A DNA stretch of 64,000 nt from Smithella sp. (GTDB lineage Bacteria > Desulfobacterota > Syntrophia > Syntrophales > Smithellaceae): the NCBI GenBank assembly GCA_012510495.1, contig JAAZHX010000216.1:22-64021 (forward strand), written 5' to 3'. Position 1 is the first letter of the stretch, and the number at the start of each line of letters is the position of its first letter. Below the pieces are notes generated by a model. That model was not told where the DNA came from, ran no database searches, and saw nothing but the letters and a program-made list of their open reading frames with translations. The position numbers and the translations under genes are program-made. Below are positions 1 to 47,413 of this stretch, in pieces.

Positions 1-158
1 TCCGAAGAGGCCAGACCACCTCACTTATATGGTTTCTGGAAAGCACTACAAACACTGATGCACTTTATTTTTGGCTTGATGAAATGGAAACGATAGCGTC
101 TTTGGCTACATAGAATATGATAAATGCCTTGGAGATTAATCATTTTACATGCAATTGC

Positions 159-226
159 TGCCAACCAGCCGCTCCAGCCGATCGCAGTGCCAAGGGCGCG
201 GCTCCGGCTGGAGCTTTTCGTTTGTG
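159..226 (+). repeat. attC-like recombination site A
   Basis: R'' TGCCAAC (159-165) and R' GTTTGTG (220-226). A 10-bp perfect stem pairs 171-180 (GCTCCAGCCG) with 205-214 (CGGCTGGAGC). 5-nt unpaired spacers sit on both sides. Confidence 0.6.
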
Positions 227-355
227 CCAGGCATGGCACGTAACTAATGAGGTGTAAGTCCACATACCAGGTGTTCGCAGAGCCGAAGGATAGGAGAAGG
301 GCAGGCTCGTCGTCGCGAGGCTTCTCCCTATCCCGATTGGACGGAGAAAACCGAT

Positions 356-865
356 ATGAACATACGTTGTATCTGCAACGACTCTGACATCGCTGCTGTC
401 GCGGCAGTTTTTACTGCGTCGGTACATGAACTTGGAGCGTCACATTACGATGCGACACAAAGGAATGCGTGGGCAGCGCGTTCTGCTGATGTAAAGGCTT
501 GGTCAGCTCGTCTATCTGGCCTGCGGACTCTTCTGGCAATCGAGAGGAATACGATTGTTGGGTTCATCTCTTACGAGCCGAACGGTCACATCGAGTTTCT
601 TTACACCGCTCCGGGTTTCGAGCGTCAAGGCGTCGCATCTGCTCTATACCGCGAGGTTGAAAAAGCACTTCCAGGAGTTTCGCTTTTCACAGAAGCCAGC
701 CTGGTTGCAAAGCCCTTCTTCATGCAGCATGGTTTTGCCGTAGTCGAGGAGCAAGAGGTTTTGCTTGGTGGCGTCATGCTCCGCAGGTATGCAATGCGCA
801 AGGCAGTTGCCGCCCAACAAGGCATGCAACCCGACGGCCCCGCCGCTGGCGGGTCCACGGGTTAA
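356..865 (+). CDS. GNAT family N-acetyltransferase (cassette ORF)
   Basis: 169-aa ORF with the acetyl-CoA binding motif region RQGVASALY and a small GNAT fold length. GGAG sits upstream of the ATG. The stop lies inside attC B. Confidence 0.85.
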   Translation: MNIRCICNDSDIAAVAAVFTASVHELGASHYDATQRNAWAARSADVKAWSARLSGLRTLLAIERNTIVGFISYEPNGHIEFLYTAPGFERQGVASALYREVEKALPGVSLFTEASLVAKPFFMQHGFAVVEEQEVLLGGVMLRRYAMRKAVAAQQGMQPDGPAAGGSTG

Positions 866-879
866 TTTTGACGTTGGGG
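812..879 (+). repeat. attC-like recombination site B
   Basis: R'' GCCCAAC (812-818) is a perfect RYYYAAC. R' is GTTGGGG (873-879). Stems AACCCG (828-833)/CGGGTT (858-863) and GGCCCCGCC/GGCGGGTCC form the hairpin. Confidence 0.7.
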
Positions 880-887
880 TGTGAAAA

Positions 888-1553
888 ATGCTGACGACCG
901 AAGATAACAAGACAGTTATTCATATTCCATCTGCATTGAGAATAGTTGGAATTATCGCAGGTATATGGGGAACACTCGTTGTTCTTCTTGCAACAATAGC
1001 TTATCTCTCAGCTCAGCATCAAGACTTTTCCATATTAACCACCTATTTAAGTGATATTGGGGCTACTGCTGGTTGGCCGCAGATCACCTTTAATGCAGGT
1101 ACCCTTATTGCCGCACCTATAAGATATCTTGCTATTTTACTGCTAATTCTTCGGCTTGGCCAATTAGGGGCAGGCAGTGCTTTTATTGCCGCGACCTTAT
1201 TGATTGCTTTTGTTTCAACTTCAGGCACAGTCATTATGACTGCCGTGCCTTATAATGTATCTGCCACAGTCCACAAGATCGGTATTCCTTTATACTTTTT
1301 TGGTGTTGTGATTCTTCAAACCATGATTGGAATCAAGGAGTGGTCATTAAAAGATATTCCTAGAATTCTTCCTTCTTTGTCCTTTTTGTTGGTAGTTGTA
1401 TATTTTCTCTTTGCCATCTTAATTGGCTGCTATGAACGTGGAATTGTAAGCAGGGATACACCTGTAATTTGGGAATGGTTAGCTTTCTTTTTTTCCATAA
1501 TCTGGATACTCACACAGAGCATCCTTCTTGGAAAAAAGGATGGTGTTAAATGA
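888..1553 (+). CDS. Polytopic membrane protein, DUF998-like (cassette ORF)
   Basis: 221-aa AT-rich ORF with about 6 hydrophobic helices and a YLSDIG motif after the first helix. The ORF fills the interval between attC B and C. Confidence 0.6.
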   Translation: MLTTEDNKTVIHIPSALRIVGIIAGIWGTLVVLLATIAYLSAQHQDFSILTTYLSDIGATAGWPQITFNAGTLIAAPIRYLAILLLILRLGQLGAGSAFIAATLLIAFVSTSGTVIMTAVPYNVSATVHKIGIPLYFFGVVILQTMIGIKEWSLKDIPRILPSLSFLLVVVYFLFAILIGCYERGIVSRDTPVIWEWLAFFFSIIWILTQSILLGKKDGVK

Positions 1554-1556
1554 TTT

Positions 1557-1623
1557 CCACAACAAGTCGCTACACCGGATCGCAGCACCTGCGGCGCTAC
1601 TTCGGCTTAGCTTTTCGTTGTGT
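1557..1623 (+). repeat. attC-like recombination site C
   Basis: R'' CCACAAC (1557-1563) and R' GTTGTGT (1617-1623), a 6/7 reverse complement. The imperfect inverted repeat is GCTACACCG.../...CGGCTTAGC. It shares the GCTTTTCGTT right end with sites A and E. Confidence 0.65.
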
Positions 1624-1634
1624 TACAAGGTCTT

Positions 1635-2399
1635 ATGAATAGAAAATTCCCAATTCTGGAATATGACCCAACCCGTGTTGCTTTTATCGAGCCTTCAAAG
1701 GTCATTACGCCTTTGGATATGCCTGAGTATTGTGTAGTCTGTTTTTTCAGGGAAGTGATCGATAAAGTAGTAATCGAACACAATGCAAAGGTATTGGTAA
1801 CAGACTATTGGGAAGATGGTCCTCATCCCATTTATGAAATTGAATACTGTGATCAGAGATTGGCATTTTTCCATCCAGGTGTTGGCGCGCCACTGGCCAC
1901 GGGCCTGCTCGAAAAAGTCATCGCTTATGGCTGTCGGGAATTTATGGTTTGTGGAGGTTGTGGAGTTCTTGATAAACATATGGCGGTTGGCAGTTTACTG
2001 GTTGTATCCAGCGCAATCCGCGACGAAGGCGTTTCGTATCATTACCTGCCCCCAAGCCGGGAAGTGTTTGCGCACGAAGCGGGGGTGAAAGCCCTTGCAA
2101 ACACCTTGAGTAATATGAACATTCCGCACCATATCGGTAAAACCTGGACGACCGATGCGCCTTTCAGAGAGACACCGGATAGGATAGCCATGAGAAAAGA
2201 GGAAGGCTGTCTTGCTGTAGAAATGGAAAGCGCGGGCATGATGGCAGTTGCGCAATTTCGTGGTGTAAGTTTAGGACAGATATTATATGGTGGGGACGAT
2301 TTGAGCTGTGTGGAATGGGATGAGCGTTCATGGCAATCAAGAACCACCATACGCGAGAAGCTTTTCTGGCTGTGCGCGGATGCAGTTTTGACGATTTGA
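1635..2399 (+). CDS. Nucleoside phosphorylase family protein (PNP/UDP_1 fold, uridine phosphorylase-like)
   Basis: The translation carries the family-typical AVEMESAG motif and a GVGAP segment. An alternative GTG start at 1620 lies inside attC C, so the ATG at 1635 is preferred. Confidence 0.75.
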   Translation: MNRKFPILEYDPTRVAFIEPSKVITPLDMPEYCVVCFFREVIDKVVIEHNAKVLVTDYWEDGPHPIYEIEYCDQRLAFFHPGVGAPLATGLLEKVIAYGCREFMVCGGCGVLDKHMAVGSLLVVSSAIRDEGVSYHYLPPSREVFAHEAGVKALANTLSNMNIPHHIGKTWTTDAPFRETPDRIAMRKEEGCLAVEMESAGMMAVAQFRGVSLGQILYGGDDLSCVEWDERSWQSRTTIREKLFWLCADAVLTI

Positions 2400-2437
2400 A
2401 CAGTGCGAATGAGAAACAATTTTTCCCGGAGGTTTCA

Positions 2438-3280
2438 ATGCTTCAGCAGGAAATGATCGAACGCTTCAGAGATGCTTGTCATGAGGATGCACGAATAATC
2501 GCAGCTTTGATGTTCGGCTCATTTGCTACCGGAGAGGGTGACGCGTTCTCTGATATCGAATTCGCGGTGTTCATTCAAGATGATTCATTTGAGAGCTTCG
2601 AGCAGCACTCGTGGCTTAATGCAGTCAGTCCGGTTGCGGCTTACTTTCCGGACGACTTCGGCCACTATACAGCACTTTTTGAGAACGGCATTCGCGGTGA
2701 ATTCCACTTCATGCGCAAATCGGACATACCGATTATTTCCACATGGCAAGGCTACGGATGGTTTCCCTCGCTCGATGCGGCTGTTTTGCTGGACCGATCC
2801 GGCGAGCTGTCACAATACGCGAGTGCCCTTGTGGGCGGTCCTCCGATACGTGAAGGCGCGCCGCTTGTAGAAGGGATCGTATTGAATCTCATCAGTCTGA
2901 TGCTCTTTGGCGCCAATCTTCTCAATCGGGGAGAGCATGCCCGCGCATGGGCTTTGCTGAGCAAAGCCCATGAAAACCTGCTCAAGCTGGTTCGCCTCCA
3001 CGAAGGGTCGACAGACCACTGGCCGACGCCTTCGCGCGCGCTGGAAAAGGATCTTTCCGCGGTTGCGTATAATCGCTACCTGGCATGCACAGCCGGCGCA
3101 GAATCAAGAGCGCTATACGCGGCCTATCGCGAGTCGTGGCAGTGGAGTCTCGAATTGTTCAAGAGTGTTGCGGTACCTCTGAACATTGAACTTCCGACAA
3201 CGGTGATTAAGCAGGTGCAAAGGTTGCTCAATGATTCCGATGCGCCGTACAACAAGGGCATTCAGCCGACAAGCCGGTGA
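2438..3280 (+). CDS. Pol-beta-fold nucleotidyltransferase, Lnu(F)/LinF-like lincosamide/aminoglycoside NTase family
   Basis: NTase signature MFGSFATGEGDAFSDIEF (G-S...D-x-E). About 280 aa with a helical C-terminal domain. GGAGG lies 5 nt upstream of the ATG at 2438. The stop is inside attC D. Family-level call only. Confidence 0.7.
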   Translation: MLQQEMIERFRDACHEDARIIAALMFGSFATGEGDAFSDIEFAVFIQDDSFESFEQHSWLNAVSPVAAYFPDDFGHYTALFENGIRGEFHFMRKSDIPIISTWQGYGWFPSLDAAVLLDRSGELSQYASALVGGPPIREGAPLVEGIVLNLISLMLFGANLLNRGEHARAWALLSKAHENLLKLVRLHEGSTDHWPTPSRALEKDLSAVAYNRYLACTAGAESRALYAAYRESWQWSLELFKSVAVPLNIELPTTVIKQVQRLLNDSDAPYNKGIQPTSR

Positions 3281-3295
3281 TGCCGGGCGTTATCT
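3247..3295 (+). repeat. attC-like recombination site D (short type)
   Basis: R'' GTACAAC (3247-3253) and R' GTTATCT (3289-3295). The stem CAT-T-CA-G-CCG / CGG-TG-ATG has two extrahelical bases (T, G), a hallmark of folded attC. Confidence 0.65.
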
Positions 3296-3316
3296 TTGTA
3301 TTTGGAATATTAGTCT

Positions 3317-4153
3317 ATGTGTTCAACAAAAGATGTCATTGAAAGTTATAAAACTTTCTTAGAGGTTAAATATCCTAGTCATTTTCAAAGCTATTGTCGG
3401 CGCATGAAAGCTAAAATTGAAAGTGTAAAGGCAGAAGCTATAACATTCTCAATTCTAAGATCAATTTTTAAGGATGTACAGGTGGCGGAAGATATTAGTA
3501 CAGGGGGTACTGACTTCCTTTGTAAGTCAAATGGCAATCAATTCATATTTGAAGTTACCTGCCTTGAGGCAGAATCAGTAGCTGCGCAATCGGGATGGAG
3601 AAATGAAGTATCAGAGAACGTATCCGCTGGCTTTTTTCGAATGATAACTCATATGCTGCGCACTAAAGTATCTAGCAAAACGATGCAATTGTCTGGATAC
3701 AGCGTTCCAAGAACTCTCGTAATAACGTGTGAGCATGTTGCGGCAGATGTTCTTTTGGGCACACATGGTGCAGAATTATTACTGACAAGTGATACAATGA
3801 TTGAGGTTCCAATTGGTAAACCAATTGATACTGTCGATATTGTCACTGATTTGAAAGATTCAGTTTTTTTCAGACTCAAAAACGGCGCATTGGAATCGTG
3901 CAGAAGAAGCATTTCGGCAATCCTTTTATTTAGTGTACTTGCTAAGACAACACTAGCTGTGGGAATTCTACATCCTGATCCTGAGTATAAATTTCCAATT
4001 AGCCTTCTGCCCTCCGTCCCATTTATGAGAATGAAGGAATGGCCTCCAATAAATAACAGGATTGAAACCGAGTGGGTCATTGACAAACCAAAAGCGGAAG
4101 AATTTTATCATCGTGAGGTGGAGTTGACAGATAAGGAATTAAGAAGCAGATAA
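3317..4153 (+). CDS. Hypothetical protein (orphan cassette ORF)
   Basis: 278-aa AT-rich ORF that exactly fills the cassette between attC D and E. The stop TAA overlaps R'' of attC E. I recognise no family. Confidence 0.6.
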   Translation: MCSTKDVIESYKTFLEVKYPSHFQSYCRRMKAKIESVKAEAITFSILRSIFKDVQVAEDISTGGTDFLCKSNGNQFIFEVTCLEAESVAAQSGWRNEVSENVSAGFFRMITHMLRTKVSSKTMQLSGYSVPRTLVITCEHVAADVLLGTHGAELLLTSDTMIEVPIGKPIDTVDIVTDLKDSVFFRLKNGALESCRRSISAILLFSVLAKTTLAVGILHPDPEYKFPISLLPSVPFMRMKEWPPINNRIETEWVIDKPKAEEFYHREVELTDKELRSR

Positions 4154-4203
4154 CAAAAGCAATGCACCCGATCGCTACGCTCCGGGTGATTTTTTCGTTC
4201 TGC
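4148..4203 (+). repeat. attC-like recombination site E (last of array)
   Basis: R'' AGATAAC (4148-4154) is the exact reverse complement of R' GTTATCT of site D, as expected for one circularisable cassette. R' is GTTCTGC (4197-4203). Left arm AACAAAAGCAATGCACCCG pairs with right arm CGGGTGATTTTTTCGTT, with bulges. Confidence 0.7.
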
Positions 4204-4407
4204 GTAAATAAGTTAATGTCCGGTGGTTCAGAAAAATGCATAGTTGGCAATCAACCGAAAATCAGCAATGAATGCCTTTTCCCCTTTAGTGCCGTCTGTA
4301 CGCGACAAAAGACCCTCGACGGAAATGCAGGACTTTAATCCATCATGCACACGGAACCCTTTCGGCGCTCGACACCGACACCACGCCTTGAAAGCTGTAA
4401 GGATTGC

Positions 4408-4436
4408 TTGACAGCCAAAAACGTGTTTCGTATAGC
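4408..4436 (+). promoter_or_regulatory. Sigma-70-like promoter
   Basis: TTGACA, 17-nt spacer, TATAGC, upstream of the 4513 gene. Confidence 0.4.
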
Positions 4437-4512
4437 TTAATCAGAAACAGACAACGTCTTGTCCAAAAGGCGGGCCGTTCTCTCGAATCAAATCGCATCA
4501 GGGGGTTATCCT

Positions 4513-5817
4513 ATGAACTTTTTTAAAAAGAACCGCAGGTCTCTCATGCTGATTTCCGCTCTGATTGTCGTTGTGCTGGTCATCGTGATCCTGAAGCCAT
4601 CGGACCATGGCGCGCCTCATGACGCTTACTTCGCTGCGCTGAATGATGAACTGAAGAAGAACGGCTCCGGCCGGCCGGTCATCCTCGTGGATATGGACCG
4701 GCTTGATAAAAACCTCACGCTTCTCAAGGAGAGCATCCAGCCGCCCATTGCTTACAGGCTCGTGGTAAAATCGCTCCCCTCAACGCACATGGTGAAATAC
4801 ATCATGCAGAAAACGGGCACAAAGAAGCTCATGGTCTTCCATCAGCCGGACCTCAATCTCCTGGCCGCCCAGGCATTTCACGACGTCGATATCTTACTGG
4901 GGAAACCGATGCCGATCAACGCTGTCCGTGAATTTTACGCGACCGTTCCGCGCGAAACGGGCTTCGATCCCGGTCGTCAGGTGCAGTGGCTGATCGACAC
5001 TCCGCAACGCATGAAACAGTATCTCGCCTTCGCCGCCGAAAAAAATATCACTCTGCGCTGTAACATCGAGATCGACGTGGGCCTTCACCGGGGCGGTGCG
5101 ACAAACATGGATGATCTGGACGAAATGCTGAAGATCGTTTCCGACAGCGGCGACCGGCTGAAATTCAGCGGCTACATGGGATATGAGCCCCATGTCGCCT
5201 CCGCCCTGCCCCTCCTGAAGAAGAAGGAGGCGGCGGTACGGGATGCCTACGCCGAAATGATGGCGCGCTACCGGGAGTTTTACGATTTCGGGAAGAAGCA
5301 TTATCCCGGTTTTTTCTCGAATGAACTGACCTTCAACAGCGGAGGGAGCCACACTTACCGACTCTTCAAGGGGGAGGGGCCCGTCAACGACGTCGCCGTA
5401 GGGTCGGGACTGGTAAAGCCGTCCGATTTCGACACGCTTCTGCTCACCGACCACCTGCCGGCCCTGATGGTGGCGGCGCCGGTGCTGAAGCGCCTTGATG
5501 GGACCACCGTGCCCTTCCTGGAAAAATTAAGCTGGATTTTCCCCCTGTGGAATCCCAACCAACAGGTAACCTATTTCATTTACGGCGGGGGATGGCGCGC
5601 GAATTTCCATTCACCGAAGGGCCTGGAAGGTAATGCCTTTTTCGGCCTGAGCACGAATCAATCCGTTGCCAACGGTTCGCGGAAAACCGCCCTGGCCGTA
5701 GATGATTACATCTTCCTGCGACCTACCCAGAGCGAGGCCATCCTGCGCGAGTTCGGCGATATTGTGCTGGTTCGCGGAGGAAAGATTGTCGACCGCTGGT
5801 CTTCATTCCCGCAGTAG
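4513..5817 (+). CDS. Membrane-anchored PLP-dependent alanine-racemase-fold protein (DSD1 / Ala_racemase_N-like)
   Basis: N-terminal TM helix (LMLISALIVVVLVIVIL), then a TIM-barrel-like region with a candidate PLP lysine in VVKSLPS. AGGGGG lies before the ATG at 4513. The ORF track starts at a TTG at 4459. Confidence 0.55.
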   Translation: MNFFKKNRRSLMLISALIVVVLVIVILKPSDHGAPHDAYFAALNDELKKNGSGRPVILVDMDRLDKNLTLLKESIQPPIAYRLVVKSLPSTHMVKYIMQKTGTKKLMVFHQPDLNLLAAQAFHDVDILLGKPMPINAVREFYATVPRETGFDPGRQVQWLIDTPQRMKQYLAFAAEKNITLRCNIEIDVGLHRGGATNMDDLDEMLKIVSDSGDRLKFSGYMGYEPHVASALPLLKKKEAAVRDAYAEMMARYREFYDFGKKHYPGFFSNELTFNSGGSHTYRLFKGEGPVNDVAVGSGLVKPSDFDTLLLTDHLPALMVAAPVLKRLDGTTVPFLEKLSWIFPLWNPNQQVTYFIYGGGWRANFHSPKGLEGNAFFGLSTNQSVANGSRKTALAVDDYIFLRPTQSEAILREFGDIVLVRGGKIVDRWSSFPQ

Positions 5818-5949
5818 CCATACCGCTTTCCGGCTATCGGCGCCACCGGCGGCATCTCTGCCGTCCGTGTTTTATCAGAAGCAGAGATGCTCAAGCGAAT
5901 GCGATTCCCCAAAAGCTGGGCGCGCCTGATTTTCGGTGGAAAATACCCC

Positions 5950-5978
5950 TTGACTTGAGAAGCCTGCGCTTCTATATT
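5950..5978 (+). promoter_or_regulatory. Sigma-70-like promoter
   Basis: TTGACT, 17-nt spacer, TATATT, about 50 nt upstream of the 6025 ATG. Confidence 0.45.
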
Positions 5979-6024
5979 CAGAGCCGTCAAAAGCAATTTC
6001 TTATCAATGAATAAGGGGTGAAAG

Positions 6025-45766: not shown

Positions 45767-45841
45767 GGAAAATCAAATAATCCTGATTGAATACCGAAAC
45801 AAATTGTGTTTAGGAACAACAGCGCCACACAGGAAGAGGCC

Positions 45842-47413
45842 ATGAATCAACCATCCAGGACGGTCGAGATCGATTTCAATTCCGAGTTCCAGCGGGCATT
45901 TTCGCTCATGGAAGATACGCAGAAAAACATCCTGATCACCGGACGGGCAGGCACGGGAAAGTCAACGCTGCTCAACTACTTCCGCGATACCACCCAAAAG
46001 AAAGTGGTGATTCTGGCGCCGACCGGCGTGGCGGCGGTCAATGTCGCAGGCCAGACGATCCATTCCTTTTTTCATTTCAAGCCGAATGTGACGCCGGCGT
46101 CGATCAAACGAAAGAAAAAGGGGGGAAAGGAGAGGCCGACCCTTTATAAAAAGCTGACCACCATCATGATTGACGAAATTTCGATGGTGCGCGCGGATCT
46201 GCTGGACTGCATCGACAAATTCCTGCGCTTCAACGGCCCCAGCGAAAAACAACCCTTCGGCGGCGTGCAGATGATTTTTATCGGCGATCTGTATCAGCTG
46301 CCGCCGGTTGTCTCGTCGGCGGAGCGCGAAATTTTCAAAAGCCATTACCCGACGCCCTATTTTTTCAGCGCAAACGCCTTTGATCAACTGGACATCGAGT
46401 ATATCGAGCTGGAAAAAGTCTATCGGCAGAAGGACGATGAATTTGTCCGGCTGCTCAACACCATCCGCAACCGCTCCGTGACGGATGACGATCTGGCCAG
46501 GTTTAATTCGCGCTGCGATCCGCTCTTTGAAGCACCCCCCGGTTCCTTTTATCTGTCTCTCACCAGTACCAACGATCTGGCGGACGCGATCAATGAAAAG
46601 CGGCTGACCGAACTGCCGGGGAAAATCTGGAGAACCGTCGGCCAGATCGAAGGCGATTTCGGCAAGGAATATCTGCCGACCGCGGTGGATTTGAAACTGA
46701 AAAAAAACGCACAGATCATGATGCTCAACAACGATTCGCTGGGCCAGTGGATGAACGGCACCATCGGCAGAATTCGCAGGTTTGAGCAGGATGACGACGG
46801 CGAGGATGTGATTGTAGCCGAACTGGACAACGGCGACACGGCGCGCATTTCTCCCTACATCTGGAAAATCTACCGGTTTTTCCTGAAAAAGGAAGAGCTG
46901 CACTCGGAGGAGGTCGGTTCTTTCCGGCAGTATCCGGTGCGTCTGGCCTTTGCGGTCACCATTCACAAGAGCCAGGGGAAAACCTTTGAAAACGTGGTGA
47001 TCGACGTGGGGCGGGGCACCTTTGCCCACGGGCAGATGTACGTGGCGCTGTCGCGTTGTACGACCCTCGACGGCATTGTTCTCAAAAAACCGCTTCAAAA
47101 AAATCATATTTTAATGGACTGGCGCGTGGTGAAGTTTCTTACAAATCTTCAGGTTGCTCAAGCCGCCAAAACATTCAGCCGCGAGGATAAAATGAAATGG
47201 ATTGAAGCGGCGATTGCTGAAAAGAAAAGCATCGAAATCCTTTACCTCAAAGGTCAGGATGAAAAATCGCGCCGGACGGTGAGACCCCTGTTCATGGGGA
47301 ATATGGAATACAAAGGTTATCCATACCTGGGTCTCGAAGCTTTCTGCCTGGAGCGACGGGAAAAAAGAATTTTCAACGTGGACAAGATTCTGGAAATTGG
47401 AGAGGGAAGGTAA
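45842..47413 (+). CDS. Pif1/RecD-family SF1B helicase with a C-terminal WYL-like domain
   Basis: Walker A GRAGTGKST, IMIDEISMV, and a helicase C-terminal region (AFAVTIHKSQGKTF). The last roughly 80 aa, SIEILYLKGQDEKSRRTVRPL...YPYLGLEAFCLERREKRIFNVDKILEI, fit a WYL fold. Confidence 0.85.
   Translation: MNQPSRTVEIDFNSEFQRAFSLMEDTQKNILITGRAGTGKSTLLNYFRDTTQKKVVILAPTGVAAVNVAGQTIHSFFHFKPNVTPASIKRKKKGGKERPTLYKKLTTIMIDEISMVRADLLDCIDKFLRFNGPSEKQPFGGVQMIFIGDLYQLPPVVSSAEREIFKSHYPTPYFFSANAFDQLDIEYIELEKVYRQKDDEFVRLLNTIRNRSVTDDDLARFNSRCDPLFEAPPGSFYLSLTSTNDLADAINEKRLTELPGKIWRTVGQIEGDFGKEYLPTAVDLKLKKNAQIMMLNNDSLGQWMNGTIGRIRRFEQDDDGEDVIVAELDNGDTARISPYIWKIYRFFLKKEELHSEEVGSFRQYPVRLAFAVTIHKSQGKTFENVVIDVGRGTFAHGQMYVALSRCTTLDGIVLKKPLQKNHILMDWRVVKFLTNLQVAQAAKTFSREDKMKWIEAAIAEKKSIEILYLKGQDEKSRRTVRPLFMGNMEYKGYPYLGLEAFCLERREKRIFNVDKILEIGEGR

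Follow-up and report, generated by a model that had tools for sequence, protein, structure and literature searches.

A probable integron gene-cassette array with an lnu(F) relative in a Smithella sp. chromosome

Do five imperfect palindromes lying between co-oriented genes of a Smithella sp. mark the end of an integron gene-cassette array, and does an integrase still belong to it? The question is raised by the first 4203 positions of the window, i.e., the whole 64-kb stretch of DNA analysed here, which comes from a metagenome-assembled genome (MAG) of Smithella sp. (Thermodesulfobacteriota; Syntrophia; Syntrophales; Smithellaceae) and whose proteins carry the NCBI accessions NLA41515.1–NLA41521.1. 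Positions 23–4203 very probably represent the distal end of such an array in the Smithella sp. chromosome. The array comprises four complete cassettes, each with a terminal attC site on the plus strand, preceded by the tail of a fifth (23–220) that is interrupted by an insertion sequence (IS). A real cassette array ending at 4203 is indicated by the scores of attC covariance models and by other assemblies in which the cassettes have swapped neighbours, with breakpoints between G and TT of the sites. Elements of this kind are already known as sedentary chromosomal integron arrays or as CALINs, a category of IntegronFinder (Cury et al. 2016) that reportedly denotes a cluster of attC sites lacking integron-integrase, and the array described here is a further example.

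attC sites and their family

The Rfam library holds no attC family, and a scan of positions 1–6000 with it returned a single chance match to a long non-coding RNA; therefore, attC models were built for this study. Model R1 was derived from five sites of contigs L019 and L077, and model R2 from 36 sites that R1 had detected in 13 loci with a tblastn match to IntI1 (six of them full-length). Labels of this type denote public contigs or assemblies compared with the window, L128 being plasmid pMUR050. Both models contain no window sequence, their seeds being integrase-adjacent sites of other genomes. Since the MAFFT alignment of all sites was poor for short sites of the D type, a small hand-structured seed was used, followed by re-alignment with Infernal. 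R2 was run with the filters off on both strands of the whole 64 kb. An earlier note, made from the sequence alone, had placed five sites in the array, each extending from NNNNAAC to GTTNNNN on the plus strand, and all five positions were confirmed:

159–226, plus strand: attC site A; R'' TGCCAAC, R' GTTTGTG; R2 46.1 bits, E = 2e-12, full-length model match
812–879, plus strand: attC site B; R'' GCCCAAC, R' GTTGGGG; R2 22.1 bits, E = 3e-4; stop codon of an open reading frame (ORF) inside
1557–1623, plus strand: attC site C; R'' CCACAAC, R' GTTGTGT; R2 34.9 bits, E = 1e-8
3247–3295, plus strand: attC site D, the weakest; 49 nt; R'' GTACAAC, R' GTTATCT; R2 10.8 bits, E about 2
4148–4203, plus strand: attC site E, the last of the array; R'' AGATAAC, R' GTTCTGC; R2 66.8 bits, E = 2e-19

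The covariance search proposed in the earlier note as a check, performed with Infernal and the self-built R2, returned four of the five sites as significant. These were E, A, C, and B, with boundaries equal to those reported before, and the next match reached 11.7 bits (E = 1). R1 and R2 both recovered A, B, C, and E in the 64 kb and nothing else significant. With R2, no attC match was found downstream of 4203 over the 64 kb, in agreement with the claimed end of the array. As a control, R2 detected all three true attC sites (two of aadA2 and one of lnu(F)) of the pMUR050 class 1 integron with 37–44 bits and nothing else there. Among the 36 sites of the model, the L stem was 95% paired, and compensatory changes were observed in five of its nine pairs.

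The structural plan that had been read from the letters also stood. For B, C, and E, the folded bottom strand consists of an R box, an unpaired spacer, and an imperfect stem, and the ORF stops at 863–865, 3278–3280, and 4151–4153 are located in or beside sites as claimed. R' of D (GTTATCT) and R'' of E (AGATAAC) are perfect reverse complements, and R' of B matches the reverse complement of R'' of C at six of seven positions. The right end said to be shared by three sites needs correction: TTTTCGTT is common to them, while GCTTTTCGTT ends only A and C, and E ends with TTTTTTCGTT. The 8-mer TTTTCGTT alone is not enriched in the window.

The wider family of these sites was searched for in GTDB (one genome per species) with the pattern CCGATCGC N3-25 GCTCCGG N4-8 TTTTCGTT, derived from sites A and E and from L001 239–303. 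It matched more than 120 stretches of public genomes, with an estimated chance expectation of about 2, and nearly all matches were in Syntrophales, Smithella, Syntrophus, or ‘Deltaproteobacteria’ MAGs. At least six of these loci (L019, L077, L035, L103, L008, and L089) contain a full-length IntI1 homologue (45–49% identity) that is divergent to the sites. Four tested integrases scored 411–435 bits with the NCBIfam model TIGR02249 ‘integron integrase’ (cutoff 265), covering model positions 1–315 of 315. L019 and L077 display the textbook order of intI, an attI-like region with repeated ATAAGTGGAA motifs, and cassettes each ending in such a site. Site E is 88–98% identical to attC sites of integrase-linked arrays, e.g., that of L019. 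Thus, the sites of the window belong to an attC family linked to integron integrases.

Several features of these relatives were recorded in passing. In L077, positions 403–462 hold an attC nearly identical to the aadA type of class 1 integrons, beside sites of the Syntrophales type in one integrase-linked array. The Smithellaceae integrases of L035 (4166–5470) and L103 (3569–4882) are 434–437 aa long, with an N-terminal extension of about 100 aa ahead of the IntI core, and thousands of metagenome relatives share this length. ‘Deltaproteobacteria’ attC sites have already been modelled by Ghaly et al. 2021 (PMC8352920), and the literature search returned no paper describing integrons in Smithella. 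For the Syntrophales, key syntrophs of anaerobic digesters, the findings contribute a well-documented cassette array together with an attC family that is specific to the lineage and can be recognised as such; the known picture of integron function is unchanged.

Crossover signature and cassette exchange

In integrons, the six bases past the crossover belong to the next cassette, so R'' of a site is expected to match the R' that opens its own cassette. Over 107 cassettes of the family, pairing of the R''/R' outer bases averaged 3.10 of 4 with the own R', 1.62 of 4 with the adjacent R', and 1.44 of 4 with a random one (Wilcoxon p = 1.5e-12), and it was perfect with the own R' in 65 of the 107. 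Only the last cassette of the window shows the perfect match (GTTATCT versus AGATAAC).

Exchange of whole cassettes was observed in comparisons with other assemblies. The window is identical to L001 up to about position 2200, 91–98% identical to 3289, and unrelated right after GTT of site D; a MazE/PIN toxin-antitoxin cassette occupies in L001 the place of the cassette for a 278-aa protein in the window. L001 is in turn 96.7% identical to the JGI contigs L139 and L140 up to GTT of the site after a DUF4062 cassette and then differs. The DUF998 cassette recurs alone in Smithella contig L029 with 85% identity and other neighbours, and its alignment covers window positions 869–1620, matching the cassette bounds. 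The comparison of cassette content with relatives, suggested earlier as a check, thus gave the same cassettes beside different neighbours, with breaks between G and TT. The earlier view that the sites bound co-oriented cassettes, that the array ends at 4203, and that 3290–4197 is one excisable unit is supported by model scores, integrase linkage in related genomes, and swap breakpoints. The signature of integrase-mediated crossover is present in the sites, and the units they delimit have been exchanged between arrays.

Some findings weigh against reading 23–4203 as the end of an integron array. The pattern that led to the seed loci of the models had itself been taken from sites of the window, so the model matches in the window show membership of that site family; independent support comes from the linkage to integrases and from the detection of clinical attC sites by the model. 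The four cassettes of the window, taken alone, give a weak complementarity signal, with own-R' scores of 1, 3, 2, and 4 (10 of 16) against adjacent scores of 3, 3, 1, and 1 (8 of 16). The evidence for recombination comes from comparisons of sequences. No IntI-like ORF was found in the 64-kb window, in L001–L006, L127, or L129–L140, including the leftward extensions L001 and L139, and L131 has no integrase within 8 kb leftward. Finally, site D is at noise level with R2, though its reported boundaries are exact.

The attC status of D follows from homology to the clinical lnu(F) attC and to L001, together with the cassette breakpoint after its GTT. Its homologue in L001 scored 19.9 bits (E = 9e-4, R2). 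In an alignment, D proved to be the same site as the clinical lnu(F) attC, having lost 10 nt from its loop and undergone a compensatory double change of AA..TT to GC..GC by which the stem stays paired; relative to the L001 homologue, it has two more substitutions, forcing a second bulge. Site D is a real attC that has probably been weakened.

It is very improbable that the sites have nothing to do with integrons and are intergenic palindromes, such as REP-like (repetitive extragenic palindromic) repeats or terminators, that resemble attC. Two sites do overlap terminator-like pattern matches, and the folding z-scores of individual sites are modest (−0.8 to −2.8). Yet R2 also picks up clinical attC sites, TIGR02249 integrases accompany the family, the sites occur on one strand only with none elsewhere in 60 kb, and the complementarity of R'' with the own cassette, like the breaks at GTT, is a specific mark of recombination by an integrase. 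REP palindromes and bacterial interspersed mosaic elements (BIMEs) are likewise short imperfect palindromes between genes but differ from the window sites, which have the AAC/GTT ends specific to attC, lie in one orientation, are linked to integrases, and show R''/R' complementarity specific to the cassette. Over 1–4600, matches to promoter- and terminator-like patterns were no more frequent than expected by chance.

For the sites as attC, the integron paradigm would imply the following course. Each bottom strand, when single-stranded, would fold into an imperfect hairpin with an AAC/GTT R box, unpaired spacers, and an L stem with a bulge (for bottom-strand folding of attC, see Bouvier et al. 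2009, PMC2727003). IntI would bind the folded sites and recombine two of them between G and TT; a cassette would then leave as a circle of 653, 744, 1672, or 908 bp and could re-enter at attI or at another attC. The integrase might act in cis, from a gene further to the left, or in trans, from a gene at another place in the genome. So far from any Pc, the cassettes would probably be a mostly silent stock.

The array is composed of the following cassettes:

23–220, plus strand: 3' end of the upstream cassette (GmrSD_N/DUF262 protein and 213-aa protein); ORF tail ends at 113; 100% identical to L001 2954–3151
221–873, plus strand: cassette 1, 653 bp; GNAT acetyltransferase ORF 356–865 (Pfam Acetyltransf_10/1/7); bounded between G and TT of sites A and B
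874–1617, plus strand: cassette 2, 744 bp; DUF998-like membrane protein ORF 888–1553 (weak Pfam matches to DUF998/Frag1); AT-rich
1618–3289, plus strand: cassette 3, 1672 bp; PNP_UDP-family nucleoside phosphorylase-like ORF 1635–2399 (PNP_UDP_1) and Lnu(F)-family ORF 2438–3280 (LinB-like_C)
3290–4197, plus strand: cassette 4, 908 bp; 278-aa protein ORF 3317–4153; AT-rich; first bases TTATCT complementary to its own R'' AGATAA

The co-orientation of the ORFs between the sites was confirmed: all ORFs and all five sites are on the plus strand, with a site spacing of 0.65–1.7 kb (criterion, <4 kb). The gene content is typical of cassettes, including GNAT, toxin-antitoxin, defence-like, and resistance genes; the 278-aa protein of cassette 4 had no Pfam, NCBIfam, or PADLOC match. 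The G+C content was 0.39–0.41 over approximately 1000–1800 and 3200–4200 and 0.55–0.62 beyond 4600. The AT-richness ascribed earlier to the cassette DNA therefore holds for 888–1553 and 3317–4153 (39–41% G+C) and fails for the GNAT and lnu(F) cassettes (0.53–0.57). A hairpin in the GNAT leader (227–360) was rejected, folding no better than shuffled sequences (z = −0.37).

In these respects the array resembles sedentary chromosomal integrons such as the VCR arrays of Vibrio cholerae. There, too, the cassettes share one orientation, mostly carry a single gene, and close with an attC, and the attC sites of a lineage resemble each other. AT-rich cassettes, insertion sequences within the array, and a content of toxin-antitoxin, acetyltransferase, defence-like, and unknown genes are likewise common to both. 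The array differs from them in being known without an integrase or attI, in its host, a syntrophic anaerobe, and in its short sites (about 55–68 nt) with the core CCGATCGC...GCTCCGG...TTTTCGTT.

Further cassettes were observed left of the window. In L001, positions 319–1170 encode a DUF4062 cassette protein (PADLOC PDC-S60), and 1366–3044 the GmrSD_N/DUF262 protein with its 213-aa partner (PADLOC NsnA and PD-T4-2_A). These PADLOC entries are candidate anti-phage systems, and both are probably anti-phage defence cassettes. A recent preprint (bioRxiv 10.1101/2024.07.02.601686) presents chromosomal integrons as stores of defence genes, and the likely anti-phage cassettes of this array agree with this. 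The approximately 100 nt between the site after the DUF4062 gene and the GmrSD_N gene (L001 1226–1330) hold GCTTATC and CACCAACGTTGATA, resembling remnants of R'' and R' boxes; this stretch may be a decayed empty cassette, which could explain the poor R''/R' match of that cassette.

Left edge and the integrase question

The left end of the window is an IS junction followed by its target-site duplication, and the right end of the array adjoins chromosomal genes:

1–22, no strand assigned: right terminal 22 nt of an insertion sequence; inverted repeat GAGGTGGTCTGGC on the reverse complement; splits the ORF for the 213-aa protein of the cassette before it
23–27, no strand assigned: target-site duplication ACTTA, 5 bp; found as a single copy in L001 and flanking the insertion, one copy in L127 and the other in the window
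4204–5817, plus strand: chromosomal flank; spacer, then the first non-cassette gene, for an alanine-racemase-N-domain protein (4513–5817; Pfam Ala_racemase_N)

Window positions 1–22 differ from the uninterrupted L001. The other junction of the IS was found in L127 (2412–2509), where host sequence ...AACTTA is followed by GAGCTGGTCTGGC.... The two ends, GAGCTGGTCTGGC and GAGGTGGTCTGGC, are inverted repeats in 12 of the first 13 nt, and the element is known here from its ends alone (also L005 1–29). In L002 and L003 (1–132 of each), L004, and L127 (1–182), the DUF4062 cassette gene is cut short by the end of a second mobile element, which holds the C-terminal part of a transposase-like ORF. Because insertion sequences interrupt the array, all short-read contigs stop there. 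Assemblies without these insertions have at least four more cassettes leftward (GmrSD_N with the 213-aa protein, DUF4062, GNAT-like, and a 286-aa ORF), and L139, L001, and the window merge into at least eight cassettes with nine sites. The leftward walk by homologues of the 213-aa protein ended at the IS junction and not at intI; when metagenomes were scanned with the protein of the DUF4062 cassette, the array grew by 1.2 kb and one cassette (L139), but intI was again absent.

The earlier note had concluded that the integrase must lie left of the window. Inspection of that side through other assemblies revealed that the cassettes continue and did not reach intI, and the claim could not be verified: positions 1–22 are an IS end, the at least four further cassettes come without intI, and the 8 kb to the left in L131 include non-cassette DNA but no intI. 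A search with Smithellaceae IntI for an integrase of the same MAG yielded thousands of relatives, none attributable to this MAG. Since the left extensions lack intI and L131 passes into non-cassette DNA, a CALIN is about as likely as a complete integron.

That the window holds the far end of a complete sedentary chromosomal integron, whose intI, attI, and Pc are situated further left beyond the insertion sequence or sequences, is a tentative reading with slightly less than an even chance. The cassettes are on the plus strand, so the platform would be on the left; the merged array of at least eight cassettes has a size more typical of integrase-linked arrays; and in related genomes, intI lies immediately upstream of arrays that bear these sites. 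Against this, approximately 5.7 kb of leftward extension are free of intI, the short-read contigs all break at insertion sequences, and each of the related complete genomes contains several attC loci scattered apart, most of which lack intI in the 8-kb block retrieved.

The same dispersal, with several separate attC loci in a single genome, is in line with the other reading, to which an even chance was given: a CALIN, i.e., an attC cluster without an adjacent integrase that has been split off or stranded, e.g., by IS-mediated rearrangement, and whose cassettes an IntI encoded elsewhere could still move. The sister contig L131 of a Smithellaceae MAG, 99.2% identical over 1628–4210, has one different cassette leftward and then non-cassette genes with an IS4-like fragment. 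Ends of two different insertion sequences are located inside the array, the right side is clear of intI over 60 kb, and arrays of five related MAGs (L075 4451–6028, L025, L050, L044, and L083) start near a RecD2-like helicase gene, divergent from it, without an integrase. The array shares with CALINs at least two attC sites on one strand and the absence of intI from the 64 kb rightward and from the available left sequence; it differs in that the leftward absence is limited to sequence ending at insertion sequences. Two points count against a CALIN: the retrieved sequence of the window's own strain stops short of the left boundary of the array, and the boundary in L131 may itself be a secondary rearrangement.

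The homologous helicase gene of the window (45806–47413) has no array adjoining. On the right, the Ala_racemase_N gene is followed by D-Ala-D-Ala-ligase-like (Ddl-like) and methionine-synthase-like (MetH-like) genes, and this flank is common to several assemblies. A scan of the genome collection with the flanking alanine-racemase-like protein gave no relative; therefore, the synteny of close relatives could not be compared by such a scan. The 99%-identical sister L131 (10894–11019) departs from the window at 4211 onward, 14 nt past the crossover of site E, and ends 125 nt later; this divergence may reflect another insertion at the right border of the array.

The Lnu(F)-family gene and its clinical relatives

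ORF 2438–3280 of cassette 3 matched the NCBIfam model NF000119 (linco_LnuF) with 541.7 bits (cutoff 450) over positions 1–273 of 273. It is a predicted Lnu(F)-family lincosamide nucleotidyltransferase that may confer lincosamide resistance. The protein is 85% identical to clinical Lnu(F)/LinG, and the DNA is 84.8% identical over 838 nt without gaps, with homology to the clinical cassette extending into attC. In the collection, 296 Enterobacterales plasmid records gave a tblastn match at 80–90% identity.

The clinical cassette used for comparison is that of the class 1 integron aadA2-lnu(F) array of E. coli plasmid pMUR050 (NC_007682; L128 3430–4367). Both cassettes start with TTGTG (TTGTGT in the window and TTGTGC in the clinical one), and the R''/L'' arms of their attC sites are homologous. 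The window cassette differs in having an extra upstream PNP_UDP-family gene, in lacking the 80-nt clinical leader, and in the loop deletion and re-paired stem of its attC described above for site D. The two-gene PNP_UDP and lnu(F) cassette was also found in L001, L131, and L223. A hidden attC between the two genes, suggested by the resemblance of TTTTGACGATT at 2386–2396 to an R' end, was rejected, as positions 2300–2500 gave no R2 match and no fold.

The window gene is not the direct source of clinical lnu(F). Metagenomic proteins 89–90% identical to clinical Lnu(F) exist, and environmental cassettes closer to the clinical one were found in L219–L221. In L219/L222 and in L220, a gene 89% identical to clinical lnu(F) forms the first cassette beside an integron integrase and shares the 80-nt leader and attC of the clinical cassette. 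An lnu(F) relative in a mobilisable cassette of a digester bacterium bears on the origins of integron resistance cassettes; lnu(F) goes unmentioned in the main text of the attC study cited above (Ghaly et al. 2021, PMC8352920). It seems rather unlikely that arrays of Syntrophia/Thermodesulfobacteriota from digesters and sediments are the reservoir of the class 1 lnu(F) cassette, with PNP_UDP and lnu(F) as its ancestral or functionally coupled form. If this were true, either the phosphorylase-like gene would work together with the nucleotidyltransferase or the clinical single-gene cassette would have arisen by its loss.

The environmental lnu(F) integrons are located at 4438–6867 in L219 and at 2788–4863 in L220, and that of L219/L222, with a 434-aa IntI, lies within a contractile-injection-system or phage-tail-like gene cluster.

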